A stretch of 64,000 nucleotides of DNA from Candidatus Omnitrophota bacterium (lineage in GTDB: Bacteria; Omnitrophota; Gorgyraeia; Gygaellales; Profunditerraquicolaceae), in NCBI GenBank assembly GCA_041649115.1, contig JBAZNT010000004.1, forward strand, positions 23,466 to 87,465, written 5' to 3'. Made by a program: the position numbers and the translations under genes. The notes beneath the pieces are model-generated. The model was not told the DNA's origin and did not search any database. It saw only the letters and a program-made list of their open reading frames with translations. Below are positions 1-41,675 of this stretch, in pieces; position 1 is the stretch's first letter; the number at the start of each line of letters is the position of its first letter.

Positions 1-56
1 CCAAGAACAACCTTCTGGAAAGCCACATCAGGTTCCTTGCCTCCAATGATATCGGA

Positions 57-3000
57 TTGGCAGCGGATGAGGAATTTATGGAGCAGCTTAGTATTGAACA
101 TCAAGGCAGAATTATAATTGTCGCCGGTCCCTCCGGGGTAGGCAAGAGCGCCCTGATTAGCAAACTTATCCATGAACATCCTGAGAGATTCGCCCACCCG
201 GTTACAATAACCACTCAACAGGGGCAGGCAGATACAGGTTTTGGAATCAAGGATAACGATAAAGAGTATATATCTCAGGAAGAATTTGTGCATTTAGTGC
301 ATAGGCAGGCTTTGTACTTATTAAATAGAGGCGACCGCTATCTATCCGGAATAAGAAGAGCCGATGTCAATGAGGCAACAGCCGCAGGCAAGGTCATATT
401 ATTAGAGGCCTCCTCCCGGGATAAGCTCGATGCCTTAAAGGCAGAATTTCCCGCTGCGCCTGTAATCTTAGTGTCTCCGATATCCTTAGAAGGCCATAAA
501 TCAATACCTGTTGCGACAAAGATACTCTTTGAGAGGTTGATAGGTAGCGTCTCCATAAACGCAGATGACTTTCAGTATTCTGAAGGAACAAAAGAGTTGA
601 TTAAGCCGGTATTGGCAGAGATTAAGCATAATCTTTTATTTGCTTCTAAAGAGAGTGCCGCCTTGAATATGTCGACTGCCCGCAAGCTGATAAAACAGGC
701 CAAAGAAGCATTATTGGATATTAAAGGCAAAGAAGACGGCTCGCCATCCGAGTTCATTAAGGCGATATTGGCGAATCTAAACCGGATTCAAATTGACCTC
801 GAATCAACGATCTGCGCCTTAAGTGAATTTATCGGATTAAATAAACAGGGGAGGCTCGCGGCAACCGTTATTAATAAGGACCAGGCCACGTTGCGCGATG
901 CCTATGCCGAATTTGAACGTCAGGTGTTTCGTTTATCTGGGATTACAACGGAAGAAAAATCCAAGGTTATCGGAGTGCTCGCTTTTGATGTGGATAAAAC
1001 GCTTGCCGAGAGAAACAGTCCTCTGGATACCCCTATGTTAAAGGTTATTACGCGCTTGATAGAGGCGTTCAACCGTTTATCCAAGAGGGCCGGCCTGGAG
1101 ATAAGATTTGCAATAATCACAGGGCAGTCGCTTGAAAAACAGAAGGAGCGCCTCGAGCCTTTATTGCACCCCGGCCTTACTATTTATGCAAATGAGGCTA
1201 CCCAAAAATATGTAGTAACGGATGATTTGGATTTCAGGGAGGATTTATCTTACAGGAAAGGCTTTGCTGACGATTCCCAGAAGAGCGCCGTAATAGAGGC
1301 AATAAGAGCCACCATTATTTATAAATTCCAAAGCGCAAACACCCCTGAGCCTATTAAGTCAGCGTTAAAGGAACTTCTGGAAGATGCGGGAGAGGCGAGC
1401 GAGGTTAAGGATGATGTTATATTGGACAGGGGGACGCAGCTCGCTTTTAAATGCGACTTAAACCAGGCACAAAGAGAGTATCTTGCTGACCACCTGCGCC
1501 AGGAGCTCAAAAAACGCGGAGTCCGCGGGTTAAACGTCAGGGTATCCGGCAAGACTACTGTTTCGGTTTACAGGTCGGGAGTCAGCAAGGCAACAGCAAT
1601 ACAGGACTTAACCGAAACCCTGGGCATCTTTCCGGAGGATATTATTTATTTCGGTGACGAATTCGGCACGGATGGCAACGACCTCCCGATCAAATTCGTT
1701 ACCGGGATAAACGTTATAAGCGTGGGGCCGAGGCAACATCTTAGCGCAGGGATATTATGGTTAGGGGAAGGAGTGAGATTCACCGCAGATATCTTAGGGA
1801 TGGTATCCGGGTTTATAGAGGAGAGCTTAGGTGAGGATGGCGCATTCAGTATGCCCGGGTTAGTGGAGTATTTGCGCGGAATTATGCCGGCTCGTATTAA
1901 TGTCGAGGAGAAAATTGAGCAGGTCCGCACCGCCATAAATGATGAACAAAGAAAATTTTTAGAGCAATTGGGCTTATTGAAGCTGGGCGAAGCTATCTCG
2001 GATACCGTCGCCTCTGCCTATTGCATCCCGGATGATTTTATAACTGTTGCTATGCGCCGCCTCCCTTATGATTATCTTGAGGAAAGCAGCCAGGATGTGC
2101 TCAGGATAGTCGTAGAGGAATGCTGGGAGGCGTACCAGCTTTACCTGAGAGGGGATGCTGCGTGGCCATTGGTGGACGTTTATAACATTTCCTCGGTGCT
2201 TTCCGAAAAACAACTTCATTATACACAGCTTATTGCTGTTTCGGCGGAGCCGGCAGACAATATTGAAAATATTTTATCCCAAGAAGCGTTGCGTTGCGGA
2301 TTATGGGAATTTTCATATCAGGGAGTTGCGTTATGCGGTATGAATATGATAGATCGCAAGAGGGGGTATGCCTTTGCAAATACCAGGCTTCAGCAGGCCT
2401 ATCGCCAGGAAGGGGTAAGAACCGCATCCAGGAGGAGCATGCTTATCCAGCATCGGAAAGAATTCTTCCAGTTTGTATTGCATGCAGCTACCCTTCAGAA
2501 TATTGAGCGCATGCTTGATTATAAGAAAGAAACGCTAAACCCTTACATCATATTGGTGCGCGATATCTTAAAGAGCTCTTTATCTGCCCCGGACCGCGTC
2601 GTGTTATCCGGCGGCTCGTTACCCGCAGGCTTGCAAAGCATGAACCCCGTTAACCTCGGGGAGGTAGCTATTTCCGGCGGGGATAAGGGTCTTGATAGCG
2701 GATTTAAATCTGACTCCTGCCCGGAAGCTTATCTTGACCGGCTCCGGCAGATTTTTGGTTTTGTTGCACATTATATTGATGGCCCGCCGTTAAAGGTTAA
2801 TGTTGTAATCGAGCCGGTTCAAGACCGCCAGCCTTCTATGCGGTATGAACTATCCACCAATACCGTTCATGTCCAGGCGTTATTATTGGCTGAGCCGGTC
2901 CCTCTTGAATACGCCCAGTTCATAATTCATCACGATTTCATTCTGCATGCTTACCGCGGACTTTCCGAAGAAGAAGCCTCGTGGGAGTCGGTATTATTCT

Positions 3001-6000
3001 TGCTTCAAAACCCGGATTTTATCGGTGTCATTTCTTCGTTCTTTGCGGCAGGTTCTCTCATAAAGATTGATACGGATGATGTTTTCTTGGCTGCCATGCT
3101 TGCCAATATCATCCCCCAGGCAAAGCGGGTTGCTGTGCTTAAGATGCTTCTTGACGATAGCTTTATATTCGGGAGTAAGTTGAGGGGCTATGTAGATGCG
3201 CATTATTTTAGATACCTTATCAGCAGGTTGAAAAACCGCCCCCTTGTTTTGGCAGGGGCGTTCGAAGAAATTATCAACGAATGGCCGGAATTAAAAGAAT
3301 ATCTGCAGATAGCCGGTCTGGGGGCTGTTAAAAAGAATTCCAAAAACGCGCCCTACCGTCTCCCCGTTCCGGCATCCAGCCGGTTCCATGGACAGGGTGT
3401 TCGTGGGGACTACCGGGAGTATTACAAGATCCTTAAAGAGAGAAAGTCGTTCTTAAGACAACTCTTGGGCCGCGCCCCGCCCAGGCACCGGATCATCATC
3501 ACTACGGATTTATCTCTTACCCGGGGTAATGTCGCTGCTTGCGGCATCGATAACCGCATCGTTTATATCCACCCGTATTTCTTCGAACTCAGCGAAGCCA
3601 AACAACTTGAGATCCTTTACCATGAGCTCATCAGCCATATAGAAAAGGGCATCCGTAGCGAAGATGCTGCGATGGCTGACACAGAGGATTTTTCTTCTTT
3701 TTGTCTTGAAAAGAAAGCGGTTTCTATTTCCGATAAGGCAATCGGCAATAACGGTTTTATCAGCCTTAAGGTATCCAGAGCCAACGGCAGGTCCGAGTCT
3801 TACCGGGTTAGGCTTGTGCCGCCTTCTGAATATGCGTTATACAGCGAAATGCTCCTATCCGTCCGTGAAGAAGAGAAAATAATCGAGCGTGAGTTTTGGG
3901 TGATGTCCGACGATGAGGACGAAAGGCGTAACCCCGCAGGCAGGATGTTCGGGCTTATGGCGGCAGAGCTGCGTTTGGCCAGCAAAAAAGCGGCAGAATC
4001 CCATGTCCTTGCCTTCTTTGCGGTTGAAGATACGGACGGGAACTTTATAGGTGCCAGGCTATTGTATAAGCTGCAGCATATTTCTGAATTGGGGCTGGAG
4101 GCTATTCAGGGGGTTGACGCCATTCGTCAGGAATTCCAGGGGCGCGGGGCAAACGGCGGCATAGGCATCGGGACGCGGCTGAGGTCTATTGCCTTTGAGT
4201 GGTTAATAAAGAATGGATATCTGCTTTGCGCCGAACTAGTGCCTTTTGACAATGAGCCCGATCTTAAAAGCCTAAAGCGGGCAGCTTGGCTGCAGGGGGC
4301 GCATTTTAATAAAACCAGCGTATATTTTGTCAAAGGCGGAGAAGGCGCTTGGTGGTATGTAGTGAGACTCACCAAATGCCCGCTTATTCATATTCTGCGG
4401 GAGCTATTAATTGCAGTTAGTTCTGTTTCAAAGCGGCTCATTTCAGGCGTTATCGGCCTCGGTTTAATCCGTCTTGCCTACCTCTCCGTGGCTGGTGGGA
4501 GGCAAGTAACAGGAACCGAGGCTATTTTAACAGAGAACTCAGGATGCGATGTGGGTCCTGGTGCCCGGACGACTTCCCCGGGAGACCTCACTGGGACCCC
4601 TCGTATCCCTGAGTTTATCAGGCATAAGACCTCTACAAAACAAAAGACCTACCCCGCCAGGCTTAGAGGAGAAATAATTAAACCTACTGCAGAAGAGTTG
4701 AATAACCTCAAGCAGTATTTCGGAAAGAATGAAGTAACATTCGTAGATAAGACTGTGACCGGCAAGATTGCCGATACCGGAACCAACCCCGGTAAAATAT
4801 CGATATTGAAAGCCCTGGCTTCCCGCGCCCCGCCGTTTAACCCGGATAATCCCTCCTCCCGGGCCTTTCAGGTATTAATCAATGACATCATCCGCCATGA
4901 AACCAAAGAACTGGAAACCGGCTCCCACCAGCTCGCCTGCCAGGCAAGCCATGAGTATTTCAGAATCCACCAGAAAGAGTTGAGTCAATTATTAGAAGCA
5001 GTCGCTTTGGCTGATATCAAATTAGATGCAGAAGAGGCAGAGTATCTTAGCGGCCAGGCAATATCAGAAAAAAAGAATAGAGAAGCCGTCTTAAGGGCAA
5101 GGGTTCTGTTTTCGTTTGACTTAACAGCAATATTATCGTTGTTAAGGGTGACGAACTTTAAGGAGTTCTTAAACGGGCTTTTAGACAATCCCCGCGTACT
5201 GGTAGTAATAAGCACCCGCGCAGGAGATACCGCCGCGGTATCCAGGAAATTATCGAGCGAGTTAACGAGGGAATTCCAGCAAGATCATGTATTGTACGCT
5301 CCAGACGGAATCAATAATAAGGCCCAGGTTCTTCTGGCTTGGATGGAGGCAAACGGGATTACCGCCGAAGATATAGTGCATATTGATGATAGGTCCGTAG
5401 AATTCATGGCTTTTGATTCTCTGCGCAGGGCATTTGGCAGAAGAGGGGCACGGATTGCATTTGTTGATATGGAAGCAGGCAGCGCCGCAGAGGCGTTTGG
5501 CGGGCTTTTGGATTTTGTTGAGTCAGCAGGGGTATCGATTACTACGCAGACTCTCGGAGGACCGCTTGCGGATGCCATAAGCGGGATGCGGGATTGGAGA
5601 GCCGAGCATATCGAGACGCTTAATAAACGCACCAGCAATCCATTTTACAGCGAACTCCAGGCAGCCGCAAAGGATATCTATCACAGGCACAAGATTTACG
5701 CGCTTGCGGCTAATGAGCGCCTTGCGTTTGTTAATGCCGTCTTTGAAGGCGAAAGATACGCGCGGGTACGCCACGCCGTTAGCGTCTTGTATCAGCGAAT
5801 CCGGGAGCAGGGTTTCTCTCCCGATTCCAGCCTCACTGCCGAGCAGTATTATATGTTGGCTAATATATTATCGGAAACGGAAAACAAATATTCTATTATA
5901 GAGAACCGTTATATCCGTTTCGGGATGAACCTTGTCTTTGATATCTGGGAACAGGAGAAGCGCATATTAGAGCAGATGCACCTGCTTGGAGAGATTAGTA

Positions 6001-9000
6001 AAGAATTAGCCGCCCCCGGCAGCGGCAATCTGCCGCTTATTGCTGCTATGCAGGACCTGCACGGCGGGGCGCGCAGGGCCATGGCGCTGGCGGGTTTTGT
6101 CATGGGTCTGCCGGCAGGGCTCTATAGTCAAGTTACAACACTGGAAGACCTCAAGGCCCTTCTGGCAGAATACGGCATTGATGTTAAAAAAAATGGCGTG
6201 CGCTTTGTAGGCCTTAGCGATAAATACGACCGTGGTAATGATCCTATTGCAGCGTTTGAATTGGTAAAGTGGCTTAGGGATGAAGGCAAGGCCAAGCCTT
6301 TTGCCGGAAACCACGATGACTGGCGCACCTGGGGGGTATTGGGGATACACCTTTTATTTGAGGGCGGTATCGATTATAAATCCCCCGATGTCAAGAACCA
6401 CCATATTGCCTATTGGTCGCGCGAGGCCTTTATGCATTCCGGATGGGGGGACATAGAGCTGGAGCAGGTTAATCAGCGCAGATTTAATCAGGCAGTGGCA
6501 GCAGTAAATAAGATTTTGTCCCTAAACGGTATTACAGAATTATCTCCGATAGACCTTTCAGCCGTGCGTGCGCGGGATGAGGCGGAGTTAAAGAGCCTTA
6601 AGAAGCAGAATGCCTTGATACGCCAGCAGAATGAATTGAATAAGGACGACCCCGCTTATGCAAGGCAGGCAGAGCTGCCTCTTCCCGATATCTTCAAGAA
6701 TACCCTCGCTTATCTGCGCGTGAAGACAGAGGAGTATAACCAGCGCATCGCTGCCTTAAATGAGACCCGTCAGCTTGACCTGCCTTTGATAGAGTTCAAG
6801 GAAGTCAATCTTGCCAATTACTGGCGCGACCAGGAGATTATCGAGCGTGCGCTTTGGGAGCTTAAGAATTTCCGTCTTTTTTATGTGGATGTCCTGGGGA
6901 ACCTGCATATGCATAATATACTGCCCATTGATTATGAGAGTCTCCGGGGCGGTTTCGCCGTTGAATATAAGGGGCTAAGAGGCCTGCCTGCCCTAGAGCT
7001 TATGGCTGAAGATATCCGCGTTTTCTTCCAGGATATGGATACTATACCGGATTCCATGGAGTTCCGCAGGAAGATGTGGGATGAATTAGGGGAGGCCTTT
7101 ACAATTATTAACAGTTGGTATTCGGATATTGATGCCCATGCCAAGGCAGTATCGGTAAAGAAGTTCGTGGAGGCAGGAGGGCTTGAGGGGCTTGGCCATG
7201 AGATCCTGGGGCATGTCGCACAGGCCTTTGTGGACAGGGAGTCTACTACCTTTGTTGTCTGGGGGCATAATGAGCGCAAGAAATTCGCAGAGAGCCAGAC
7301 CAGCCTGCCGTATATCTATCTCTATCCCGCCCTGAATAGCGGCATACTTAACATAGATTATGAGATGTCGGAAGGATATTCCGACAGGGGAGCAGTAGTT
7401 ACTTTCTTCAAGCGCGATGCCGAAGGAATGATTACCGGCTTGCGCAGGTGGGGGTATCGTGATGACTCCAAGATTATTGAAGACCTCACCTTTGAGGATA
7501 CCGGAGGCTTAAGCGCGGAGCAGCTAGAGATGCTTGCCACGCTCAGCGACGGCGAAGGGTTTATGCGTTGGTATATGGCCAAGGCCGCAGCACATATAAA
7601 CGAAGAGGCAGGACATCTCCTGTCTCTTGCTAAGCGTTCCAAGCGTCCCGATAAAGAAGCCCGTGCGAGGTCGGCCATGATAGAAGCCAAAAAGCATTTA
7701 GGAGATCATGACCCCTCTTCAAGCTCGCGTCCTCTTAGCACGGAGGAAGCGCAGGAGCTAACCGGCATAATAAGCCGCTACGAGGCGGAATTTAGCGATA
7801 GCCCGGGTGTTTTTTATACCAGCGCAAGGCGCGGGTTTTTAGCAGAGCAGTCAAAAGTAATATCCATACTTAGCGACTTAGGTTACCGCCAGCTCTCCGA
7901 GAGATTAAAAGGCGCCATTGTAATCAATGCCCCCCCGCAGCTTGCCGCTGACCTGCGCCGATTCGAAAAGGAGCACCGCCTTAAAATCTATCAGTGTAAT
8001 ACTACTTTTGATTACAGGGACTACATCATTGTCCATAGGCCCAGCCGCATTAAAAGCCGTTTAGCCCACGAAATTTCAGCACTTCAAGGAAATCCCGAAG
8101 AAGAAAATAAAAAACTGGAAGAATTTGTTTATTCTTTAAGCAGCATAGGAAAGAGGAGCCTTATCTTTGCCGATGAGCGCCGCCTGCTGAAGTTATCGGA
8201 AAGGTACCCTGATTTTGCCAGAGACGGGATGCTGGTAGGCGATCTCGCCCGTTTGATCGCCAGGGAAGCAGGGTTGCCGAAACTCTACCAGGAATTTCTC
8301 TATAAGGCGGGCATGGTACACGACCTGGGCAAGGGGCTGCCGTTGGTTGAACTTTATTACCATTCCAGCATCAGGCCAGGGCGCTTCTTTAACGGCTGGA
8401 TGGCCGTATTACATTCCCGCTTGACCATAAGCATTTTAAAGAACGACGGAATCAAGCCTATGTCCTGGGAACGGGAAGTTCTTCTGCACCACGGGTATTA
8501 TAAGAACCTGCATTTCAGCAGCGCGATAGTCAGGAGGTTGTGGGTAATCCTTGTACTCGCCGACCACACCGTTTCCAGGCATCTGAGGCGTTCCCATCGC
8601 AGGAACCAGCCGCAGGGGATCAGGTTTAATAATACCATCGCGGAATTAGAAAAATACTTTAGTCCTTCTTATGGCATTTTAGGAAAAGGCAGGGGGGTAT
8701 TGCCTGAAGAGGAAAGAGAGATACTGGACATTGTCAAATCCCTGGGAAACAACCCTGAATTTATTAAGATACTGAATTTCGCCTTAAGCGGCGAACTGTC
8801 CGTAGACGAGCTTTACGCTAATACCTCCGTTTCTTTTGCGGAATCAAAAGAGGAATTTGTTTCTTTCCTTGCAGCAACATTTGAGGAGGGGGCATTTGTT
8901 ACCGTTGAAGACATTTCACGCGAGATACCTTTATTTTTGCTATCCAGCGCAAACTCCGAATTTATGCTAGATATCCTTAGGCAGCTTTGTATAGAAAAGA

Positions 9001-12000
9001 AGGTTGCCGCGCTGGAGCTCCCCGGGGAGGGAGAGGGATATCTCCTGCTGGATTTAAAAAAGGAATCTGTCCGGCACAGCCCCCTCGCCGATAAGGCAGA
9101 AGGTTCGTGTTTTTATGCCGGGTTTGCCAGCGGCATCAAGGATATATTAGAAGGGGGGCATTTTAAGTTTCTGCCGCGCAATGTACGCAGTTATTTTTTA
9201 AAAGAAGAATATACTGCCCTTGCCCTTAATAGGAAGGCGGCAGTAGACCTTTTTATAGAGGCCTACGTCGGAATGGCCAGGCTATTTACTGAATATCGCT
9301 CGGAGGATTTATCAAAAGGGGAAATCCGGGATTACATAAATAATTTTGTAGACAGTTTTTTCTCCGAAGAAGGCCTCCGGAAAACATGGGAAGATGGGCG
9401 TTGCCGCGCGTTGGGTATCCCCAAAGAAACTCCTATGCCCGAAGAAGTCAGGAACAGCTTTTCAGAATTATCCGCTAACAAAAAATACCTCCAGGAGATA
9501 CTGTTTCAGATGGCGTTAGCGTTTTCTGATTTATCCCGCAAGATGCCCGCGACAAAAACGCTCCGCCAGAAAAAAGAGCTTATCAGCCGGCTGGAGGATG
9601 TTATGCGCCACGCCTTATTCAGGTTGTCTGCTATCCAGAGTCCCCCGGTGCCAGGCTTTTTATATAATCCGGACGACCCCTTTTACTCCAAGATGATAAG
9701 TTTTTACAGCCATATCTTCGCAATAGTCTTTGAGCCGTCCTATGCCAGTAAGCCTACCTTGATGCTATATCTGGATGCCGAATTAAAAAGGCAGGCGCTT
9801 TTCGGGAGCAGGGATTTTTATAAAAGCGACAAAGACCGAGCCAATGCAGGCGCTTTAAATGCATTTCCGGGCTTCTACAATGCCTTTGCCGCTATCTTGG
9901 GTTGGGATATTCCCCGGGAAGATAGCGCAAGAGAAGATTTAAGCGCAAGCCAGATGGGCAAATATATCAGGGAGGCAGAAGCCGAGGCCGAATCTGCGGC
10001 GGAAGAATATCTCCGTTACGGGGTTCTGCCTTCGGGGATGGCGGGGCTCTGGCAGGATTATAAATATAATCTTATGATAGACGAAAAAGAGGAACCCGGA
10101 TTGCTAAAGAGGCTTTTATTGTTACGCAGCGCACTGGAAAAGATATCTTTAATCTGTGCGGCAGCGAATGCCATGGACTTCGGGGATAAGAAATTTCAGG
10201 AAATCAGCGCTATGAGCGGCTTTAAGGAGGAACAGTGGCTTTGCGCTCAACTTGAGATCGAGAAGAATAACGGCTTAGAGGTTAATCATATTGATAAGTT
10301 TTTTGAGATATTGGCAGGGGCGATGCTGGAATGGGAGAAGAAAAAGAGGCACGGGCAGCTAAATTCTGACAAGGGGCGGCCCAAGGCAATTATCCTTACT
10401 GACAATGCCGGAGAGACGGTATTGGCGATGCTTTTAGTGCAGTTCCTGCTGGATTTGGGATTTAACGTGGTAATCGCCAGCCGCGATACCCCGGTGATTA
10501 ACGATATGACCGCAGAGGACAGCTCGAGCATGTTAAGGATGTTCAGGCGCAAAGGTTATTTTAGGGACTACAGCAGCGAGCGTCTAAAAGTTATCTCTTC
10601 CGGTTCGCGCATCTTTGCTACGCCCATAACGCAACTGAGCTCCGCTTTTGAATTGGAATACAGATCGGCCGATACGGCTTTTGTGATTGCCATGGGGCAA
10701 GGAAATGCCGAAAGCCTCTGGCAGGCAAAATGGGATAAGCCTTTCATACATATCCTCTATGCCAAGAACCCGGAGAAGATAGAAGAGATCTCCACTTCTC
10801 TTGCTAAACGCGCAAGCCTGTTATTGGTGAATATGCCGGGCCCCCCTCAGGAGAACAAGAGGCTTTGCCTGCAGGACGCCCCTGAATTACTCGCGGCACT
10901 ATATGCCTTAGGAGGCATTCAGGTTATCCATGAAGAAAAGATATATATTATTACTGAGGAGTTTAACCCTGAAGAGATGGTTGCGGAATTCGCCTCCTGT
11001 TTTAAGGGCAAAGGAATCATTCTTGACGCTTCAGACGGGACGATTTACTTAGGTAAAGTAGAGATAGGCGAAGGGGTAAGCATTAAAGGCACCGGGCAGA
11101 CCGTCCTCAGGGGCGGGGTGATAGTTAACCCTGGAGCCAGTATTGAGAATTCCAGGATTGAGATCCCCGCCATAATCAAGAAGGACGAGAAAGTCGTAGA
11201 TAGGCACTTCGTGATTACAGAGCCGGGGGTCATAACCCGCCTGCGCCGCGAAAAGGTCTATATCAATGGTAAAATTATAGAGCATGATACGGGGGATGCC
11301 ATCAAGATAGGAAAAGGCAAGAGCGAGATAGAGGTGCTTAAGAACCCCGTTCCCTCAAGGCTATGCGCCTTATCATTGAATAAGCCCCTTGCCACTGCTT
11401 TAAGCAAGAAGGGGGTAGAGATAATTGGTGACATGGCCACGATTTTTGTATCTGACCAGGCCAGGATAGAACCCGGAGTAACCCTGCGCGCGCATGTTAT
11501 TATCGCCGGAGAAACGGCGGTCGGAATCGGGGCAGACATCGGGCCGGAGGTGCGCCTGGATAACTGTTATGTCGGCAATAGAGTTAAATTGACTAATCTG
11601 ACGGCGATAGACTGTGTTTTTCACCCAGGGGTCGAAATAAATGGAGTTAAGTCTCTCTCCGGCGAGGAGGCCTATCCTTATCCTCGCCAGTCTATTCCCG
11701 AGGGCATGAGTTTAACGGGCGTTATCGTTGACCCTGAGCTAGTAAAAGGCGTCAGCGGAATTACGGCGCTTAGATTTAAAAGCAAGACCAAGAGCCGCAG
11801 TTATAGTCTTATCCCGGGGGCAAAGGTAGACCCGCAGTTAAGCCTTGCAGAAATAAAAGTTTCTTACCCTGAGCTCTTGGAGTCTCTTAAGAGGCAGTCC
11901 GAGGAGAGTATTTCCGTTGCCAGTAAATCCTTCCGCGACGATAAACAAATCACCGCTACCCACCTGAGAAAGATTAATGAGACAATAGAGCTGATTTTGA

Positions 12001-15000
12001 ACGACCCCATCTTTGATTCTTTGAATTGGTACGAAGCTAAAGGTATTATCTGGCAGATTATATGGCTCTATGCCAAATCGCCATTCTACCATGAAAAGAA
12101 GGATGCCGATAAGGCAGCCTTAAGGGACGTCCCTCACCTGGTGGCTGTCTTGGACGAGATAGACGGTGTCAGCCGGGATGAGGTTATACGCAGGCGCCTT
12201 TCTTTTGCTATGGAGATAGTGGCCTTATCCAATATTAACGTCTTTGACCGTGCCAAGGCATACCGGGAAGATGACCCTGCTACCCAGCTTGTCTTAAACT
12301 TTGAGAAGATTATGAGTTTGGTGAGAAACAGGATGCATCCCGACACCATATCCTATGCCTTCAGGAGGTATTTCGTTTTAGAGATGACCAAGGAGGTAAT
12401 AGATTGCCTGTTAGAGATTCCGGAAATGGAAAGGGAGGGTAAGACGGTTATCTTTAATATTAATAATGCCGGTGAGGCCATTTATTCTTTAGTTTTGATT
12501 CGCGAGATTTTAAATTTAGGATATAAAGTAGTTATGACTGCCAATGAAAAGCCGATTGATGATAACTACGATGTAATAGACCTGACAGAGTTATTGGGCA
12601 ATCCTTTCGTAATACGCCCGGAGTTCCTTGGCGAGTTTATCGCATCCGGACGCCTTTGCATGATTTCAAACGGTTCATGCACGTCGGGATTAAACCTTGC
12701 GGATGTCTCAAAGCAGTTTTATGAGCTGGCAACAAACCGCAATACCGTGCTTATGCTTTCGGTAGGCTACGACCTTACCTGGGATACGCAGGATTACTTC
12801 TTGCCTTTTAATACCGCCTCTTTATTTTGGATAAAGAATAAAATTATCATAAAAGGAGGCTTGGATTTAAGCGAGTTGCGCGGGACAGCGATGGTCCTCT
12901 TCAGGAGAAAAAGCGAAAAAACCAGCCCCCGCCCTTCCCACAACTTCACCCTTTCTACCCAGCTCCTGGCTGCCCTGGCGTGCGCTTTAACTCTAAGGTT
13001 TAAGCCGGCGGCAGGATTCTACCGCACATTCAGGGCAGGTTATAAGGTGGCCCTCTACAGGACAGCCAAACTCGGAGGCATCAGGGGTTCTCCCGTATTG
13101 AAGCACCTCTTTGCCTTCTTTTACCGCATTGCGGACAACAGCATCACCGCCTCCGAGATAAATTCCCTCAAACAGGAACTAATCCTGGCCTTGCAGAAAA
13201 AGGAACTCAATCTTACCAGGAAAGAAATCAATTCCTTCATCAGGCAGCTGAAGCGCCATGAATCTGCCAGGAATGAAATCGGGGGCTTAAAAAAGCAGTA
13301 TCAGGAATATTTAGAAGTAAGACAGAGGCGTTTTAAGTTCGGGATTGACCCGGGGAGATTTCTACCAGAGGATTACGCCGAAATCATCAAAAACCGCGAA
13401 ACCAATCGCCCTGACGGCCGCCCCCTGGCGGTTATGGTTTTCTGCTCTTATGATTGGAACAAGGCTTTTAGCAGTAGCTCATGCAGGGAGATGACATCCG
13501 CTTTTATCAAAAACGGATACAGGGTTATGTATTATGTTGTCGGTTCGCGCGTGAAGTTAATTTCGGCTTTGAAAGATGCAACTTGCGATGAGGCAGCTTC
13601 GGTAATACTGTTTGGCGGGCACGGAACTCCGGAAGGAATCCTCCTGGGCAAGAGGGCACGCCTGCGCATAGAAAACTATGATTTGTTAGCCGGCGCAGGC
13701 TTAGATTCCGTTCTAAAAGAAAACGGACGGGTGATCCTGAATTCCTGCAGCACAGGAAAGGGGAGGGATAAGAATCCTAATATCGCCAATATGCTCTCCA
13801 GGTTATGGAAAAACAAAAATCCGCTTATCTTGGCCCCGACCGTAGAATCCTTCTCCCCCAGGATCCGATTCGGGAAAGACGGAGAGGTGGAGGATGCCTC
13901 ATTTTTGCATTACACCAATAATAAGGACCGGCTAACTGACCTGTTTTGTTTATTGTTAGTGTTTTCCATCGGGATAATGTTATGGCATTGTTTAATCTGG
14001 TCGTTAAAAGAAGAGGCGAGCAATCTGAGTCTGATATTATTACTGGGGTCCAGTATCTTAAGCAATGTTGCCACATTCTGGTCATCGCTGAGCCGGTCAT
14101 TTCAGAGAAACTTAGACAATATCTATTGGCGTTTTATGCACCGCTATTTCTACACCTATCGTATCAATGCCCCAGAGCAAAAAATATCCCAAAAACAGAC
14201 TGTTAAATTCTGGAAATATTGTGGCCCTGGCTCTACCTGGTTTGCTTCAACCTTTCCGTGGCTGGTGGGGAAGCGAACTCTAATGGCATCCAGGGCCACA
14301 GTATACTCTAAAGCTCCGGAGAAGCCAAAGAAACGCTTCCAGCCGAATTGGCGCAAGGTATTTGCAGTCTTGATGATGGCTACCGTTCTTATCGCAACCA
14401 TCGGCTTCAAGGCCGGCAATATCATTACCCTTTCAAATGCTTACGGTTATTCCTATAGCGAGCAGCCTGTAGCATCCGAGATTGCCGAAGTAGATTTTAC
14501 TCCCCAGGATGTCTCTGCGGATTTAAGCGGAGCAGATGTTATCTCTTATTTTAACAGCACGGCAGAATGGCAGGAAAGCCTTTTTTCCGGCATAGGGGCA
14601 GTTAAAGTAAATTCCAACTGCGTAAGCTCTGAGGGGTGCCTGGAGTTAACTTCGGTAGACGGCGGGATAACGGCAATTACATCGCCGGTTAATCTGGACC
14701 TGCATGCCAAGCTCCCCTTTATGCGTTTTAACGTAAGCGATCTGGAGAGCGCAGAGCAGACCGCCCTCTATCTTTATACTACAGACGATGATTTTTATTA
14801 CTGGAATATCGGGTCATTTGATTATGCTACAGACGGCTGGAACGAAATCGTGCTGAACAGGAGCAATTTTTCGGTTGTCGGCTCTCCGGACTGGTCCAGG
14901 ATTAACAAGGTAGGGGTGAGGATAAAATCAACTCCCGGGGCAACGCTCAGCGTAATCTTTGATGAGCTGGCAGTGCTTCCCGAGACCCTTACGCAAGGCG

Positions 15001-18000
15001 TCGTAATCCTAACCGATGATGACTTAAACAGGTCTGAGATGTACGATACCTTTGCGCAGGAATTAATCAGCCGCGGCATGCCCGCCTCTCTGTTTGCGGA
15101 CCATAAAGCCCTGGGGGCCGCAGGCGCGATTAGCGTCGAAGACATGAAGGTGTTACAGGATGCTTACGGTTGGGATATCGCCAACCATTCCTGGACGCAT
15201 TCGGACTTTACGGTCCTGACTACTGAAGAGCGCATTGCCGATATCACCCGGATGTCCGCATGGATGTGGGAGAACGGCTTTAAGGCCTGGGATATCTTCG
15301 CTTACCCGCTTGGCAATTATGACGCCGATACCATCCGGGATATCTCTCCGTACCTTACGGCGGCAAGGGGCGTGAGGGGCAGGAACGATACTTCCTACCT
15401 GGCAGACCCTTACCGTATAAGCGCAAGGCCGGTGGACCTGGATGTTTCCTTGGCAACGGCGCAAGAATGGGTAGACAGCGCTGCCCGGAATAAAGAGGTG
15501 CTGGTTTTAACCTTCCACAGCATTGCCGATAACCCCGTAGCGGGCGATGACCTTACCTGGTCTACCGCTGATTTCAGGTCCCTGCTTGATTATATCTGCG
15601 ATAGCGACGTAGAAGTAATGACTATGTCAGAGTATCTTGCCAGATATGCGCAATATGACAGTGACGCAGCGTTAGTATCCGGCGCAGAACAGGCAGGGAC
15701 ACAGGGATTTACCCTGGCGGCCGATTATAGCTGGAACCTGCCTCAGGGGTGGGTGATAGATTCCAATGGCAACGGTTCTTGGCCTAATGTTAAAAATTCA
15801 CTTTCAGTAGGCTCTGCCGGCACAGGCTATTCTGCCCTGGTTGACGCGCGCTACCATAACAAATACATCATCCAGGGGATGATTGACGTGGATGAATATA
15901 CTGCCGGACAGATAGGATTGTTTATTGAAGAGGGGAAACTGGAGGAAGGGGCATTTACCCCATTGCGCAGGATACCGGTAGCGGTCAGGACCGGCCAGAG
16001 CCTGGTTTATGTAACTGATGATTATACGGTTGATAACCCTGATGTCAATGCCGCAAGGCTAGTAATTGAAGTTAGCGCTGGAAGCGACCTGCACGCCTAT
16101 CTTGATGATTTGAGTTTTTCGCGCATCCGAGAACCGCAGGCATTCAGCGTCTCGAGGCCGCGCGTGGTCTTCAGGTTTGACGATGGCTTCGACGACCAGT
16201 ATCTTGCTGCCGAGTTCCTCCAGCAGCACGGCTTCCCGGCAGTGGTTAATATTATTACCGACCGCGTCGGTAGGGAAGGCTATCTTAACTGGGGAGAGGT
16301 CCTTGAACTTGATTCCATGGGGGTAGAGATTGGGGCGCATACCCGCACCCACGGCTATTTTGACGGTGCCGACGAAGCGGAGTGGTATGATGAGATTGTG
16401 GGCGCCAAGGGTGACCTGGAGATACAGGGCGTTGATGCGGATACCTTTGCTTCTCCGCGCCTGGAGTATGATTATTTCTCAGATGCCACGGTTTTGAGGC
16501 ATTATTCTTCTTACCAGGGAGGAGAAGGCGGGGAGGGCCAGGGCGTCAACACCTTTCCGTATAACCCCTATAACCTCAGGTCCCGCGTCGTTTCCAATAC
16601 TACTGCGGTTGAAACGGTAATATCCTGGGTTGATGAGGCGATTGAGAATAACCAGACTTTAATCTTGATCTACCATAAATTTAATGACGCCCCGCAGTAT
16701 GATACCGAGGTAAGTTTTGCCGATTTTAGCACGGTAGTAGATTATATCGCCTCCAGAAGCGGAGAGGTTGAGGTTGCTACCATCGATGATTTTCTTTCTG
16801 AGCAGGATGAGGCGCTGGTGAATCTGCTTCCCAATCCTTCTTTTGGCGATGTAGTCAGCGCCCCGGAATCAGCGCTTCCTGAAATTACCTCCGCAGATGA
16901 AATCGTGCGTCCTTCCAAAAGCGGTTTAGCGGTTTTCTTCAAGACCTTTACCTTCAGGGGGGAGGATAGCATCTGGACGGTTGGAGTCCGTAGGGATTAT
17001 CTGCCAAAGCTGTTAGTTTTAGTTTACAGTCTGCTTTCGGGGGTTTACATCTTCGGCCGCTTGATTCAGGCCTGTTTCTACCGCGCGCCAAAAGAAAATA
17101 AGTATTATCCTTTTGTTACTGTTGTCACTCCGGCTTACAACGAAGGGGCAGCCGTTAAGGACTCCATCCTGCGTACCTTTGGTACCGGTTATCCCCTGGA
17201 GCGGTTGAGGGTGGTAGCGATTAACGACGGCTCGCGGGATAAAACCCTGGATTATATCCGGGAGGCAGCCGGGATTTATCCGGACAACGTCCTTGTCATA
17301 AACTTCCCCGAGAACTGCGGTAAGCGCGAAGGTATGTATGCCGGTATGCAGGTTGCTTATGCCTTAAGCCGCGCCCGCAGCGAAGCATTGGATAACGCAG
17401 AGGCTGTTAATGTTATCCTGCGAGATCTGGAGATTAAAGTCAAGGGAGCGCTGAAGCCGTCAGCCGCAGAGGCGATTGTGGAGGCGACGCGCCGGGAATT
17501 GGCGCGGCTATCAATTGAAAAAAAGGAAGAAGGAGATTTTTCCTTCGGACTGGTAATACCCGAAGGGATGGAGAATTATTTTGTGAGTCCTTGCGAGCTT
17601 CCTGGCGGTGCAGTGGGGTTGGATGAGGACGCGGTAGTGTTTGTTGATTCTGACAGCTACCTTCGCGCCGGCGCGATCTACAATGCAGTGCAGCCGCTTT
17701 ATGACCGTAAGGTAGGAGCAGTAGCAGGCCACGCCTATATCCACAATCCTACCCGCGACCTCCTGACCGCAATGCAGGCGATTACTTATTTTACGATGTT
17801 CCGTATCGTCAAGGGCGCGGAGAGTGTTTTTGGTTCGGTTACCTGCGTCTCGGGATGTTTAGGAGCCTACCGCCTGGATTATCTTGTTGATGTCGGAGAG
17901 AGGTTTGTCCGGCAGGAGTTCTTAGGAAAGAAGTGCACTTTCGGGGATGACCGCCACCTGACCAACCTCATTCTGAAACAGGGCTACCGGGTAGTTTATA

Positions 18001-21000
18001 ACCGTAATGCAGCGGTTGATACCATTGTCCCAAATACTATGCGGCAGTTTATCAAACAGCAGACCCGCTGGAAGAAATCCTGGTTCCGCGAGACCATTTT
18101 TGCCAACAAGATCATGTGGAAACGCCCGCTCCCGGCAAGCATTGCTTATTATCTCGGGGTCCTGTTGACCATCTCGGCTCCGTTAATGGTTGCTTATATG
18201 GTGATTGTCCGGACGATGCTGAAAGGTATCCTGCCCTTTGCATATTTGGGCGGCTTGCTGCTTCTGCCTTTTGCAATGGCGATGTATTATTATTACCATA
18301 ACGGCATGCGGGGCAAGCTTTATTATGCCTGGTTGTTGCCGGTTGTATTCCAGGCATTTATTCTGGGGCCGCTGACTTATTATGCCATCCTGACCTCTAA
18401 AAATACTGGATGGGGCACGCGCGGCGGAGCGGATAAGGCCGGGAAGGCCCAACATTTGAAACTTGTCGCCAAGCGCATCAGCGATACCGCCAGCCGCCAG
18501 GCGAAAAACACCAGTACCCGCAGCGGCAAGGAATTAAGCAAGGCAGAGGCGGATTCCGTAACCGCATCCATGCTGGATTTGTTAGCCAAAGCGTCCGGCT
18601 CAGATTTGTGCGGCCTAGATCAATTTATCTTAAGACAGCATGTTAACGGGGCAGTATCTGCGGTGAGGTTTTTTGCCGGGCTCTCCGCTCGTTTCAGGAA
18701 AGAAGACCTGCGCCAGGCTGTTGTTATCAGCGGAACTCCGATATATGTTGAGAGGGCGAATGGAGCGCGAGAGGAAATTTTTGGCGCAGTCAGGATTATT
18801 AACGGCAGAATATCGATATATTTAAACAATAACCGCATAAGGAATAAGGTTGATTTATCGCGTACTTTGGTGCATGAATTGGGTGCTTATATCGGGTTTC
18901 CGCATTGGGTTAATCAAAAGATATTGGAACGGCTGGTGCCTGATGTTGACAGGAGCGTCCACGACCCCGCCCGTCCCATACCCGGTCATTCCATGCCTGC
19001 CGGGGAGGAAGTGAACAGCCAGATTGGCCTGGTCGGCTGGGACAGCGGAGAAGTCGAGACTGTTGGGGTAGATGCCCCCGCATTGTGCCTGGCAGTCAGC
19101 TGCCTACGTTCCATCGGCAGAAACGACATGGCAGAATATTTAGAGTATCTCGCCAGAGCGGGTCTAATCCGTGCCGGACCTTTCAAGGGATTCCTGGCTG
19201 CACCTTATCAGCAAGGCATCGCCTTAAGCAACAACTACCCCGCCTATAACACCACTCAGGAAATAGCGCTTTCCCTTATTCATGATATCGGAGCCACTTC
19301 CAGATTTGACCTTAGCCACGAAGAGAACATTGAAAGAGAAGAAAGGTGCGCTGCTTTATGCGCCTGCGGTTATTTTGAAATTAGCGCTATCCTGGAGGAC
19401 TTATACATTAAAGCCCTGGATGCGCTGAAGAAATATAAAGGATATTACCAGGCGGCAGGAACCTCGCACCTTTTAACGCCGGAGTCTTTGGATTACCTGA
19501 AGACCCATAGATACAAGATGAATTTTAGGTATCACGGGAAGATGAAGTCTTTTATGCGGGCGCATCTTTTGTATAACCGGCACTATATGGAGAATGCCCT
19601 GGTAGATATCAGTTTTCTTTGGATGGCGTATTCGGCCTTGAGGCATTTAGAAAAACAGGGAGCGCAAGGTTTAAAATCTTACCTTGATGCTAAGGAAGAG
19701 GCGGTAAAAAGAGTAACGGCCAGGCACCTGGAGCTATCCGAAGGCGAGCTCCGGAGGTATCTGGAGGGCGAACCCGCTATTACTGCCCGGATAGAAGCAG
19801 AGCTCCTGGTTAAGCCCTTTACGCCTCAGGGGCTAAGAGAAATTTTTGAAAATGACTCCCGGCGCCGGCATAAAAAAGGAGAATACAGCATTTTTTCCTA
19901 TTTCGGCCAGGGCCAGGACGAAAATAGAATCCTTTTAGCAGTACGGAGGTTCTATGCCTCTTTGAGGTTTTTCGATAAGTACGCCTGCGAGATTTCCTCC
20001 CTGAAGTCGCGTATCGCATCTCTGCCTTCAGAAGCTAACGAACCAGCGGCCCCTGAGGTAGCGCCCAGGGTCGCGCGCGCTCTTCGCGTTAAAGAAATTT
20101 CCCCGGAGGCCAAGGGCCAGCAATATCTCTGGACCGATGACGATATCAAGGCCGCGGATTATATAAGCCGGTTAATCGGGATATTAGAGAGATTGCTCGA
20201 TAAATCTCTGAATGATTTGAAATATGCATTGCAGGAGTATACGGATAAGTTTTTTAATTGTAGCCAGAGTGAATATAAGCGTTTAGTCGGGGAGTTAAAA
20301 TTGGAGGATGCCCGCCTGATTTTTAAAAACAAATGTTATTTGAATCAGGAGCGTTTGAATAGGTTAGAGAAGTTTATTAATGCCGGCCGCGATACCGCCT
20401 TGAAGCTGACGAATCCCTATGTTTTGAATAAGCCGGTTTACAGTCTTTCTTACCATCTGGCTTTGGTACGCAAGGTAATGGTGGCGCAGAGGTATCTTAA
20501 GACTAAAGGGCCGCAGGTCCTGCACCGTTATCTGGAAGATAAGGCCCGGGAAGCAGGCAACTTATCCAGCCAGCAATTGGTCAATGCCATGAGCTCAGAG
20601 GCTGCTGTTTGGCTTTCTTGGGTTTTGGAATACGAAATAAAAAATCCCAAGATATATAAGATGACGGGTTTATTATCCATATTAGAGCAATACCTGACAG
20701 AACGGCCATTTATTATCGCCTGCGAGCTTTCCGATACGGCTAAGATTTTAACGCCGATGCTGGGGGAAGAACTCCACGCGGCCGACGGCTTTAATCTTAC
20801 CCCTTCGCACCGTCTCCGTCTCTTAGAACAGGTGCGGTCCGGAGAATTAGATGTTGTTTTTGTTTCGCTGGAGTCTGTGCCGGAGGCCACGGCATATTTG
20901 GAGGCAAGCCAGTTTATTTTATTGACCGAAACACCCGACAGCTGGAAGGTTGAGTCCCACCGGGCGCAAGGTGAAGGACTTACTGCCGAAGATGCGCATG

Positions 21001-28937: not shown

Positions 28938-29014
28938 AAGGAAGATTTTTGATGGCGGGGTGGTATCCCTCCAAAACATTCTATCCCGTAACGCAAGACA
29001 ATGAACAAGGTCGC

Positions 29015-30319
29015 ATGAAGAGAAACTCACCGGTATTAGCGAGCGTTTTCCTTCTATTATTAATTACCGCGGGCTGCGGACAGAAAATTACCGGAAAGCC
29101 AAGCACCAGCATCACGGTCTGGCATTGGATGACTGACCGTGACCCCGCCTTTCAGGAGTTAGCCAAGAGATACGAATCCAGGACCGGCGTACATGTAAAT
29201 TTTGAGCTCTACGCTCCTTCGGATGCTTATTCCCAGAAGGTGCGTGCCGCAGCGCAGGGCAATAATTTACCGGACATCTTCGGGTTGCTTGGAGAGAAGC
29301 GCGACTTCGCTTCTTTTATCAAGGCCGGGTATATCCTGGACCTTACCCCTTACATGCAGGATTCCGGCGGCGCATGGCAAAATGGCTTTTTTGCCAAGGC
29401 CCTGGCAGTCAATGAGTTTTCTCCAGGAAATAGCTACGGCGTCACCCCCGGCATCTACGGCGTCCCCGTAGATATCATGACCATCCAGATGCTTTATAAC
29501 AGGGATCTCTTTAAAGAATTAGGGCTTAATCCTGATCAGCCCCCTCAAACCTTTGCGGAATTCCTGGCAATCGGCAAGAAGATCAAAGAGAAGAAATTGC
29601 AGGGGTTTGTTTCCGGATGGGGGGAGGCCTGGATGATCGGTTGCCTCGCCAATAACTACGCCTTCAATATCATGGGCCAAGACAAGGTCCTGGCGACTAT
29701 TAAAGGCGATGTCCCTTACACCGACCCGGACTGGGTAAGGGTCTTGACGCTTTTTAAACAGATGCAGGATTCCGGCATCCTCTCCGGCGGCATCGTAACT
29801 ATGATTAATAAGAATGCCGAACAGCTTTTTGCCAACGGCAGGGCTGTATTTGCCTTTAACGGCTCCTGGTGTGTAAATGTATATAAGTCCATGAATCCGG
29901 GGTTGGATTATGCCGCGATGCTTCCGCCAAGGGCCTCGGAAAAATTTCCGGTGAGTATCTGGGGAGGCGGCGGCTCTTCGTTTATGGTAAATGCCAAATC
30001 AAAAAATAAGGAAGAGGCATTGGAATTCTTAAAATGGCTGACTGACCGCGACCAGCAGGCATATTTAGCGCAGGCTACTATGAACCCCCCGGCAAACAAA
30101 TATGCCTTAAACAAAATTTCTCCAATCCTCCTGCAGTTTGCCGATGATATGGAGCTTGCCACCCATCCGAATGCCTGGGGCATATCCGAGTCGCCGCAGG
30201 TTCTGGAAACCTTCAACAAGGGGATACAGTCCATAATCATAGGCGAGAAGACGCCGGAAGAGGTAGCGCAGGAGACGCAGAAGATTAAAGAGAGAGAAAT
30301 GGCGAGAATCTCCAGATGA
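29015..30319 (+). CDS. ABC transporter sugar-binding lipoprotein (solute-binding family 1)
   Basis: From ATG 29015 the N-terminus is MKRNSPVLASVFLLLLITAGC (lipobox LITAGC). The body is typical of family-1 carbohydrate SBPs. The ORF-track start 28949 adds 22 non-signal residues. Confidence 0.8.
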   Translation: MKRNSPVLASVFLLLLITAGCGQKITGKPSTSITVWHWMTDRDPAFQELAKRYESRTGVHVNFELYAPSDAYSQKVRAAAQGNNLPDIFGLLGEKRDFASFIKAGYILDLTPYMQDSGGAWQNGFFAKALAVNEFSPGNSYGVTPGIYGVPVDIMTIQMLYNRDLFKELGLNPDQPPQTFAEFLAIGKKIKEKKLQGFVSGWGEAWMIGCLANNYAFNIMGQDKVLATIKGDVPYTDPDWVRVLTLFKQMQDSGILSGGIVTMINKNAEQLFANGRAVFAFNGSWCVNVYKSMNPGLDYAAMLPPRASEKFPVSIWGGGGSSFMVNAKSKNKEEALEFLKWLTDRDQQAYLAQATMNPPANKYALNKISPILLQFADDMELATHPNAWGISESPQVLETFNKGIQSIIIGEKTPEEVAQETQKIKEREMARISR

Positions 30320-31194: not shown

Positions 31195-31252
31195 ATCCCG
31201 TTTAACGCGTCGCGGGAATCAGCCGGTTAACCGGGCGTAACGAGCATAACGA

Positions 31253-32101: not shown

Positions 32102-32143
32102 GAAGATTGTTTTAGGCGTGAGGCTTGACTTTTGACAATAATA

Positions 32144-32172
32144 TTGCCTGCGCCTGATATATTTGTTATAAT
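32144..32172 (+). promoter_or_regulatory. Sigma70-type promoter upstream of the GPH/MFS gene
   Basis: TTGCCT (32144-32149), 17 nt spacer, TGtTATAAT (TATAAT at 32167-32172). AGGAGG RBS at ~32219. Confidence 0.55.
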
Positions 32173-32235
32173 GCAACACTCATGCATGCCGGCCGGCCGG
32201 CCCATCAATTTAATTAGAAGGAGGTAGGTCAATTC

Positions 32236-36059: not shown

Positions 36060-36062
36060 TTA

Positions 36063-36135: not shown

Positions 36136-36169
36136 TGGTAAAATATAAGGAAAAAAGGAGGAGCAAGAG

Positions 36170-41654: not shown

Positions 41655-41675
41655 GTTAAGAGACAAGGAAGACTT

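Follow-up and report, generated by a model that had tools for sequence, protein, structure and literature searches.

A conserved DUF89-β-helix-DUF89 supermodule in a mosaic giant protein of Candidatus Omnitrophota

When one reading frame strings together a long series of domains that handle phosphate groups, do these domains act in one coordinated pathway, or is only a part of them conserved as a unit? This question is raised by a contig of Candidatus Omnitrophota (JBAZNT010000004.1, assembly GCA_041649115.1), of which we analysed 64,000 nucleotides (positions 23,466 to 87,465 of the forward strand, hereafter the window). The window contains a giant open reading frame (ORF) of 9339 aa. An earlier note, made from the sequence without database searches, had described in aa 15-4287 of this ORF five phosphate-handling folds and two DUF89 'damage-control' domains, and had taken them as a sign of a coordinated role in nucleotide or sugar-phosphate scavenging or remodelling rather than of random accretion. 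The reading that we favour, and to which we give about an even chance, is narrower: the ORF would encode a mosaic Omnitrophota giant protein (>9,339 aa) carrying one conserved phosphatase/pyrophosphatase supermodule, in which two DUF89/ARMT1 domains flank a left-handed β-helix (LbH). We infer from its sequence that the supermodule is a metal-dependent phosphatase or pyrophosphatase. Amino acid positions below are those of the listed ORF and were converted to window positions by nt = 57 + 3(aa-1); the coordinates of the features are collected in Table 1.

The DUF89-LbH-DUF89 supermodule and its relatives

Both DUF89 domains scored above the Pfam cut-off of 25 for the ARMT1-like family PF01937, with 87.3 bits for the first copy (DUF89#1, aa 3169-3572) and 45.6 bits for the second (DUF89#2, aa 3956-4225). 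The LbH between them matched the NCBIfam model of GlmU (E 3.5e-7), and the homologous region matched Hexapep PF00132 in locus L011 (E 3.5e-11) and in the protein P0001, with LbH_EIF2B Pfam matches as well. When an AlphaFold2 (AF2) model of aa 3150-4290 was compared with the PDB by Foldseek, the top 10 matches were all DUF89 proteins (E 3.5e-9 to 2.6e-4). These results confirm the earlier description of two DUF89/ARMT1-like domains on either side of a hexapeptide β-helix.

The author of the earlier note had not recognised this arrangement. We searched 1.84 billion cluster representatives exhaustively with HMMER, taking aa 3150-4290 as the query, and recovered the full collinear DUF89-LbH-DUF89 order in 8 proteins (42-65% identity) and in one more distant case; all of these were pieces of long ORFs. 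When GTDB genomes, one per species, were scanned, 11 loci were found, every one in a metagenome-assembled genome of Candidatus Omnitrophota and every one a single frame that stays open to the edge of its contig. In BLAST comparisons with the window protein, only aa ~2930-4290 were common to all 11 related genomes (38-62% identity). The collinear recurrence in 8 cluster representatives and 11 species genomes, which all belong to Candidatus Omnitrophota, indicates that the arrangement is not random.

The surroundings of the supermodule were far more variable. An HD-like block (from aa ~2507) lay directly upstream of it in four lineages, and the remaining blocks of the window protein were either in a different order (L010) or missing. 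At ~40% identity only the DUF89 block persisted and the other blocks were reshuffled or replaced. Outside the window the DUF89 block was flanked by HEAT repeats and phosphofructokinase (PFK) in L009, by an M54 peptidase and two domains resembling phosphoribosyl pyrophosphate (PRPP) synthetase in L011, and by tetratricopeptide repeats (TPR), a methyltransferase and a Prs N-domain, followed by a family 2 glycosyltransferase (GT2) and CheR, in L010. P0176 (7014 aa, HNW39321.1), which is the closest relative, had the same order of a GNAT-like block (56% identity), a second HAD-like region joined to a metallophosphoesterase-like (MPE-like) module (61%), and the HD-like domain with the DUF89 block (62%). 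An insertion of ~930 aa with a PRPP-synthetase-like domain separated its MPE-like and HD-like blocks, a starch-synthase domain followed its DUF89 block, and neither a guanylate-kinase-like (GK-like) nor a HAD-IIB domain was present. Of the domain order read in the window, the part from the GNAT-like block to the DUF89 block was thus kept in P0176, whereas the GK-like and HAD-IIB domains had a counterpart in none of the relatives and the blocks were reshuffled elsewhere.

The two DUF89 copies differed in their catalytic residues. DUF89#1 contains the dyad D3449-N3450, the metal-binding D3483, G3547-N3550 and the distal Lys ('YAKNPEK'), and aligned to PH1575 (2g8l) and At2g17340. Its motifs were well retained in the relatives (DNAGE in 11/11, PVIND(M/I)T in 11/12 and GQGN in 12/12). 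At the nucleophile position of DUF89#2, 8 of the 12 sequences have Asn and 4 have Asp, and GQGN is lost in all of them. DUF89 enzymes hydrolyse inorganic pyrophosphate as well as phosphomonoesters (PMC9062747). In the Schizosaccharomyces pombe enzymes Duf89 and Duf8901, the nucleophile Asp forms an aspartyl-phosphate intermediate and its replacement by Asn abolishes activity (PMC9062747). DUF89#1 therefore looks catalytically competent by its residues and DUF89#2 does not; given the Asn at the nucleophile position, DUF89#2 is most likely not a phosphatase. Because many invariant residues remain in DUF89#2, it appears to be under selection for some other role. The LbH match stops near position 312 of the 452 in GlmU, and no His is invariant across 9 sequences of the region. 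A GlmU-type acetyltransferase role was rejected on these grounds, and the LbH is probably a truncated, non-catalytic stub.

In their fold and Pfam score, both copies resemble the known DUF89/ARMT1 phosphatases (PF01937; 2g8l, 1xfi, 2ffj, 5f13 and 7t7k), and DUF89#1 shares with them the Asp-Asn dyad, the second metal-binding Asp, GQGN and the C-terminal Lys. The window protein differs from these enzymes in having two copies in one chain, separated by an LbH, within a giant protein; in the Asn and the lost GQGN of the second copy; and in a much enlarged helical N-domain of the first, in which profile positions 24-297 are spread over 404 residues. Fusions of the PanK4/At2g17340 type also combine, in one chain, an active DUF89 phosphatase with a related or partner domain that has lost catalytic residues. 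There, however, the partner is pantothenate-kinase-like rather than a second DUF89, and no LbH is present. Other DUF89 fusions that we encountered were CofD-HAD-IIB-DUF89 (in an Omnitrophota fragment), tandem DUF89-DUF89 and asparaginase-DUF89, and about two dozen of the best 150 DUF89 matches were proteins of at least 1,500 aa.

The second half of the supermodule has relatives among proteins of ordinary size. P0074 (852 aa), which belongs to a 66-member cluster on Mb-scale contigs, consists of a GlmU-like nucleotidyltransferase, an LbH stub and a canonical DUF89, and P0031 (798 aa) likewise joins a GlmU-like nucleotidyltransferase-LbH (GlmU positions 4-312, as in P0074) to a DUF89. Because a single collinear BLASTP alignment (E 5e-15) covers the LbH, the linker and DUF89#2 (aa ~3782-4221 of the window protein against 344-773 of P0074), we conclude from the sequences that these ~850-aa proteins and the LbH-DUF89#2 half as a whole are homologous. 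What they have in common is an LbH stub ending at about GlmU position 312, then a helical linker, then a DUF89. The GlmU-like proteins, which are uncharacterised, differ in carrying a nucleotidyltransferase where the window protein has DUF89#1, and in a DUF89 that keeps DNEGE and P-A-A-N-D-A-T, whereas the copy in the window has degenerated; in the alignment with P0074, N4136 stands opposite the D of DNEGE. The genomic context of P0074 was uninformative.

Table 1. Features of the giant ORF and their coordinates in the window
Feature	aa	nt	Strand	Remarks
Giant ORF	9339 aa in total	57..28076	+	Listed ORF; true start upstream of the window
Tail of upstream 'RGPP...GHELxHL...NLLxSHIxFL' junction element		3..68	+	KNNLLESHIRFLASNDIGLAAD
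GK-like P-loop domain	17-147	105..497	+	Pfam PF00625; P-loop GPSGVGKS intact
HAD-IIB domain	308-545	978..1691	+	TIGR01484, Hydrolase_3 (PF08282); motifs FDVDKT, ITGQS, SK, GDEFGTDGND
Junction element type A	1106-1214	3372..3698	+	LLGRAPP...GNVAAC...VYIHPYFFEL...EILYHELISH
GNAT-like block	1237-1448	3765..4400	+	Motif-A-like QGRGANGGIGIGTRL; 56% identity in P0176
Weakly transmembrane-like hydrophobic segment	1450-1479	4404..4493	+	Hydropathy; only one in the first 4,600 aa
Junction element type B	1518-1666	4608..5054	+	KISILKALASRAPPF...IIRHETKELETGSH
Degenerate HAD-like region (HAD-like#2)	1682-1800	5100..5456	+	FSFDLTA; motif IV HIDDRS; TIGR01681 E 0.03
MPE-like module	1835-2555	5559..7721	+	Motifs QDLHGG, DKYDRG, GNHD, MH, WGHNERKKF; ~200-aa helical insert
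Start of block common to L001/L016 and L004	2507-2700	7575..8156	+	Contains junction-like 'NAPPQL...LAHEISALQG'
HD-like domain	2701-2912	8157..8792	+	Conserved residues; directly upstream of the DUF89 block in 4 lineages
Helical N-terminal part of supermodule	2930-3168	8844..9560	+	In all relatives reaching that far
DUF89/ARMT1 #1	3169-3572	9561..10772	+	D3449-N3450 (DNAGE), PVIND3483MT, GQGNAE
LbH hexapeptide stub	~3652-3851	11010..11609	+	Matches GlmU positions 237-312
DUF89/ARMT1 #2	3956-4290	11922..12926	+	N4136 (NNAGE) at nucleophile position; GQGN lost

Domains upstream of the supermodule

The first two domains that the earlier note had named were borne out by hidden Markov model (HMM) searches. 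Guanylate_kin PF00625 scored 45.8 bits against a curated cut-off of 25.2, and the P-loop is present. A bona fide guanylate kinase was nevertheless rejected: the equivalog model TIGR03263 gave 42 bits where its cut-off is 160, the GMP-phosphate-binding R38 and R41 of the yeast enzyme are both Gln in the alignment to 1gky (TTR-TPR there, TTQ-QGQ here), and the LID region was unmatched, the PF00625 profile being covered only to position 128 of 182. The top PDB sequence match of aa 17-116 was FAP42 (7n6g), an axonemal protein of Chlamydomonas in which several guanylate-kinase-like domains lie in tandem; FAP42 ranked above true guanylate kinases, and its whole-sequence E of 1e-18 is summed from several weak stretches, the best single one having an i-E of 0.0038. 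The HAD-IIB domain reached 63.9 bits with TIGR01484 (cut-off 41.8), was also confirmed by Hydrolase_3, and keeps all four motifs (D311-x-D313-x-T, T355, K511 and GD...GND at 533-542). Since its nearest solved relative is the α-phosphoglucomutase of Lactococcus lactis (4bnd), with identical GDxxxxxGND spacing, the domain may be a mutase rather than a phosphatase. No homologue of the N-terminal 638 aa, which include both domains, was found at E<=1e-5, and a metagenome scan with this part gave a single match at 25% identity.

The three blocks that follow were recognisable at the level of motifs. For the embedded GNAT domain of the earlier note, a motif-A-like stretch was found, but no Pfam (PF00583), NCBIfam or PDB match supported it; only this stretch aligned to RimI, non-significantly (hhalign E 0.26), and the GNAT assignment of aa 1237-1448 is made on motifs only. 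The possible second, degenerate HAD-like region likewise showed its motifs, with TIGR01681 at E 0.03 as the only HMM match and no PDB match. It retains the Asp nucleophile and has Thr at Asp+2, and in P0176 it is contiguous with the MPE-like block.

For the proposed calcineurin-type metallophosphoesterase, ordered, invariant motifs were observed, and no HMM, PDB-profile or fold search supported the call. The motifs D2000-x-H2002, D2055-KY-D2058-R-G, G-N2085-H2086-D, H2286 and G-H2404 are invariant in 9 homologues; their order (DxH, DxxDRG, GNHD, H, GH) and the spacing between II and III are canonical, and an AF2 model (predicted local distance difference test, pLDDT, 67.7, with a poor core) places a predicted strand ahead of each of the first three. 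However, none of 9 family members matched PF00149 or any other Pfam family at E<=1, a PDB profile search with the module gave no match, and Foldseek against the PDB with the model, poor in its core, returned nothing at E<=0.001. By hhalign, motifs II-III aligned to lambda phosphatase, non-significantly (E 0.033, probability 1.5%).

In other Omnitrophota the MPE-like module also occurs as a stand-alone protein of ~800 aa (56-65% identity) with a signal-peptide-like N-terminus. The five homologues of this kind (P0153, P0155, P0156, P0157 and P0158; loci L013-L015) have hydrophobic N-termini of this type and no Pfam annotation, and four of them end in a conserved '...AA'. In L015 the stand-alone gene lies 11 nt downstream of a gene for a 1104-aa protein with duplicated PRPP-synthetase-like domains.

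The HD domain proposed ahead of the supermodule scored below threshold, with 17.6 bits for HD PF01966 at a gathering cut-off of 22. H2755-D2756, H2786, H2811-H2812 and D2836 are nevertheless invariant in 4 homologues, while the canonical first His position aligns to a non-His residue. The best PDB matches of a four-sequence profile were HDOD 3hc1 (E 0.17) and HD-GYP 4mcw (E 0.85).

HMM searches therefore support the GK-like, HAD-IIB, LbH and both DUF89 domains, whereas the HD domain fell below its cut-off and the MPE, GNAT and second HAD assignments lack such support. Catalytic residues are complete in DUF89#1 and HAD-IIB but altered in the GK-like domain, HAD-like#2, the HD-like domain and DUF89#2.

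Extent of the frame, junction elements and neighbouring genes

An open frame of 28 kb cannot be a chance product. The stretch that the earlier note had called the N-terminal 4,300 aa proved to be internal. The reading frame is already open at nt 3 and runs off the 5′ edge of the window, and its first 22 codons match the tail of an element that sits inside two related giant proteins (residues 646-667 of P0004, 59% identity; residues 1496-1512 of P0008, 71%). Because of these two observations we conclude that the ORF extends 5′ of the window, and a true N-terminus at the window start was rejected.

Elements of this kind recur along the frame. They begin with R[AG]PP (once NAPP), which is followed 40-90 aa on by a HExx(x)H-like motif, and they fall into several subtypes. 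Besides the tail at nt 3-68, the window contains a type A element (nt 3372-3698), a type B element (nt 4608-5054) and a further site at nt ~7900-8130 (aa ~2620-2690); they also occur in L001-L011, P0151 and P0154 and are placed at the boundaries of conserved blocks. Type A lies directly downstream of the DUF89 block in several relatives and ahead of the MPE-like module in P0151, where its R[AG]PP start recurs just after the module. Type B is common to L010, L011 and P0154 (53-63% identity where scored by BLAST, in L010 and L011). R[AG]PP was counted 23 times in 59,308 aa, against a mean of 0.87 and a maximum of 4 in 200 shuffles. Searches of Pfam and the PDB with a type A profile gave no matching family, and some variants are without the second His (window aa ~2630-2690). 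The junction elements may be processing or boundary elements.

Published Omnitrophota giant proteins are described as membrane-anchored mosaics in which GNAT, HAD and HD domains co-occur with methyltransferase and sugar-metabolism domains (10.1101/2023.11.21.568195; 10.64898/2026.06.07.730766). The present ORF is like them in phylum, in its single multi-kb frame, in its mosaic of enzyme domains, in its transmembrane (TM) anchors and in its C-terminal peptidases, and 11 of 11 related loci were from Omnitrophota. The corpus of the 2026 preprint has a threshold of 10 kaa; with >9.3 kaa in the window, the ORF falls below it unless the missing 5′ part suffices. Neither ARMT1/DUF89 nor the DUF89-LbH-DUF89 block nor the R[AG]PP elements are mentioned in these two papers.

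By hydropathy, no strong TM segment was found in aa 1-4600, and TM segments were predicted at aa 4629-4790, 5649, 6027-6111 and 8025. The remainder of the ORF (aa 4301-9339, nt 12957-28076) contains, in order, three TM segments, two CE4 deacetylases, a TM-flanked GT2, CheR, a TM segment, S8 and M28. The GT2 is chitin-synthase-like, the deacetylases are polysaccharide deacetylases, and the S8 and M28 peptidases stand at the C-terminal end; from its domains, the region looks like a poly-GlcNAc-type synthase/deacetylase unit. L010 shares blocks matching the GT2 and CheR and a block matching aa 5222-5608; at its C-terminus the identity is 72%. A stretch of ~130 aa with 'IRTHEQAHRQAT' is repeated within the window protein, at aa ~7866-7998 (nt ~23652-24050) and aa ~8715-8845 (nt ~26199-26591). 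These two copies are identical over 45 aa around IRTHEQAHRQAT, and each matches L010 6381-6516 (76-77% identity); a third, divergent and weaker copy lies at aa 4292-4419, immediately after the DUF89 block. Downstream of the ORF, on the same strand (nt 28949-42842), are genes for a sugar-type ABC transporter (SBP_bac_8 and two permeases), an MFS_2 sugar transporter, a TPR-GH2-like protein, three ORFs without a Pfam match, and a ROK-family regulator or kinase.

Two related giants, P0006 and P0009 (L008 and related), have records that begin with Met. With the starts as called, their N-termini consist of a positive stretch followed by a hydrophobic segment (MLDWQDKPWIKIISAVLVIAFLTYDIAWA; MLSWQRGKTRIFLKTVALVMAHVFFVTS). 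This points to a signal peptide or anchor, placed in front of enzyme domains that normally reside in the cytoplasm and that extend over thousands of residues.

Possible roles of the supermodule and of the giant protein

On the favoured reading, the giant protein would consist of enzyme cassettes set apart by short junction elements of the R[AG]PP/HExxH type; these cassettes are also found elsewhere, either stand-alone or in other orders. The supermodule spans ~1,360 aa (helical N-domain, intact DUF89, short, probably non-catalytic LbH stub and degenerate DUF89), and in this sub-lineage the HD-like domain precedes it. Its LbH-DUF89#2 half would descend from ordinary bacterial GlmU-like nucleotidyltransferase-LbH-DUF89 proteins, with DUF89#1 occupying the nucleotidyltransferase position in the giant proteins and copy #2 having degenerated. 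DUF89#1 could hydrolyse a phosphomonoester or pyrophosphate by-product of sugar-phosphate or nucleotide-sugar chemistry performed by neighbouring cassettes of the same polypeptide, namely the GT2 and deacetylases here and PRPP synthetase, PFK or starch synthase in relatives. DUF89#2 would then be a pseudo-enzyme that binds a ligand or has a structural role, and the LbH would serve as a spacer or in oligomerisation, whereas the GK-like, HAD-IIB, MPE-like and HAD-like#2 domains would be lineage-specific additions rather than parts of a fixed pathway. In favour of this mechanism are the sugar and nucleotide neighbours, namely the GT2, the two deacetylases and the downstream sugar-transporter/GH2/ROK locus in the window and Prs, PFK and GT5 in relatives, as well as the hydrolysis of pyrophosphate by DUF89 enzymes (PMC9062747).

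Several observations weigh against this reading. A glycosyltransferase lies in the same ORF in only 3 of the ~7 relatives with enough flanking sequence, and the link to nucleotide-sugar chemistry is one of association only. Given its invariant residues, DUF89#2 may have a different activity rather than none. The AF2 model of the block is of moderate quality (pLDDT 68.8, and <50 in the LbH part), which limits what it says about inter-domain geometry and oligomerisation. Moreover, the signal- or anchor-like N-termini of the stand-alone MPE-like proteins, P0006 and P0009 conflict with the normally cytoplasmic nature of DUF89, HD and kinase-like domains.

That the whole ~4,300 aa forms one coordinated multi-enzyme assembly for nucleotide or sugar-phosphate scavenging or remodelling, with one step per domain, seems to us unlikely. 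P0176 does keep the GNAT-like, HAD-like#2 plus MPE-like, HD-like and DUF89-LbH-DUF89 blocks in order at 56-62% identity, and enzymes of phospho-sugar and nucleotide metabolism recur beside the DUF89 block (PRPP-synthetase-like, PFK, starch synthase). The stand-alone MPE-like gene of L015 next to the double PRPP-synthetase-like gene and the CofD-HAD-IIB-DUF89 fusion are further points in favour. Yet the same relative has ~930 aa inserted between its MPE-like and HD-like blocks, the DUF89 block alone persists at ~40% identity, four domains are without canonical catalytic residues and three domain calls are without HMM support. Because the GK-like and HAD-IIB domains lack counterparts, the blocks are reshuffled and catalytic residues are lost, a coordinated pathway over the whole 4,300 aa is not shown; what is shown is a conserved supermodule of ~1,360-1,780 aa within a mosaic. 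The idea of an assembly that is not random holds for the supermodule and, in close relatives, for the stretch from the GNAT-like to the DUF89 block, but not for all 4,300 aa. The catalytic losses (R38Q/R41Q in the GK-like domain, Asp+2 to Thr in HAD-like#2, Asp to Asn in DUF89#2) could instead point to a sensor or scaffold made mostly of pseudo-enzymes, which would bind phosphometabolites and regulate the membrane-embedded GT2 synthase and deacetylases further along. The missing first His of the HD-like domain, its HDOD and HD-GYP matches, and the position of the DUF89 block upstream of the GT2 synthase in both L010 and the window are consistent with such a role. We nevertheless consider it highly improbable, given the complete signatures of DUF89#1 and HAD-IIB, the invariant candidate metal ligands of the MPE-like module and the presence of the DUF89 block in ORFs without a GT2 within 10 kb.

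A different explanation is that the ORF is translated once, as a polyprotein, from which cleavage at or near the junction elements yields separate enzymes, a part of which would be exported; the neighbourhood of the domains would then reflect co-expression and not physical cooperation. For the giant proteins of Omnitrophota, West-Roberts et al. put forward an autocatalytic cleavage (10.1101/2023.11.21.568195). The HExx(x)H-like elements at block boundaries (in P0151, type A ahead of the MPE-like module and its R[AG]PP start again just after it), the stand-alone form of that module with its signal-peptide-like N-terminus, and the S8 and M28 domains at the C-terminal end would all agree with cleavage. 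We regard it as rather unlikely, however, since no peptidase family known from Pfam or the PDB matches the elements, the second His is missing in some variants, and cleavage is not known to have been observed for any such protein. A bolder form of this explanation, which we hold to be very unlikely, is an exported, self-processing multi-effector polyprotein: the junction elements would be new cis-acting processing sites or minimal zincin-like peptidases, and would release phosphatase, pyrophosphatase, kinase-like and nuclease-like cassettes, including the DUF89-LbH-pseudoDUF89 unit. If it were true, the released enzymes would strip phosphometabolites from the cell, be it host or prey, that these host-dependent nanobacteria need. 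MARTX-type toxins are likewise very large, secreted or membrane-associated proteins with variable, reshuffled enzyme modules that are released by internal processing. The comparison is an analogy; neither MARTX repeats nor a cysteine protease domain came to light here, and no dedicated test for them was made.

Taken as the favoured mosaic with a single conserved supermodule, the architecture is a modest new domain arrangement among known DUF89 fusions and Omnitrophota giants, not a proven pathway, and it leaves the understanding of known enzyme families unchanged. Omnitrophota giants are among the largest known proteins, and the present case shows that at least one of them is built from reusable cassettes, with long-term constraint only on one supermodule, a DUF89 paired with a pseudo-DUF89 via a GlmU-derived β-helix stub. 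The supermodule is a defined, expressible unit of ~1,400 aa with which to ask what function DUF89 'damage-control' phosphatases have when they are naturally fused, and the recurrent junction elements offer a handle on whether giant proteins are processed.

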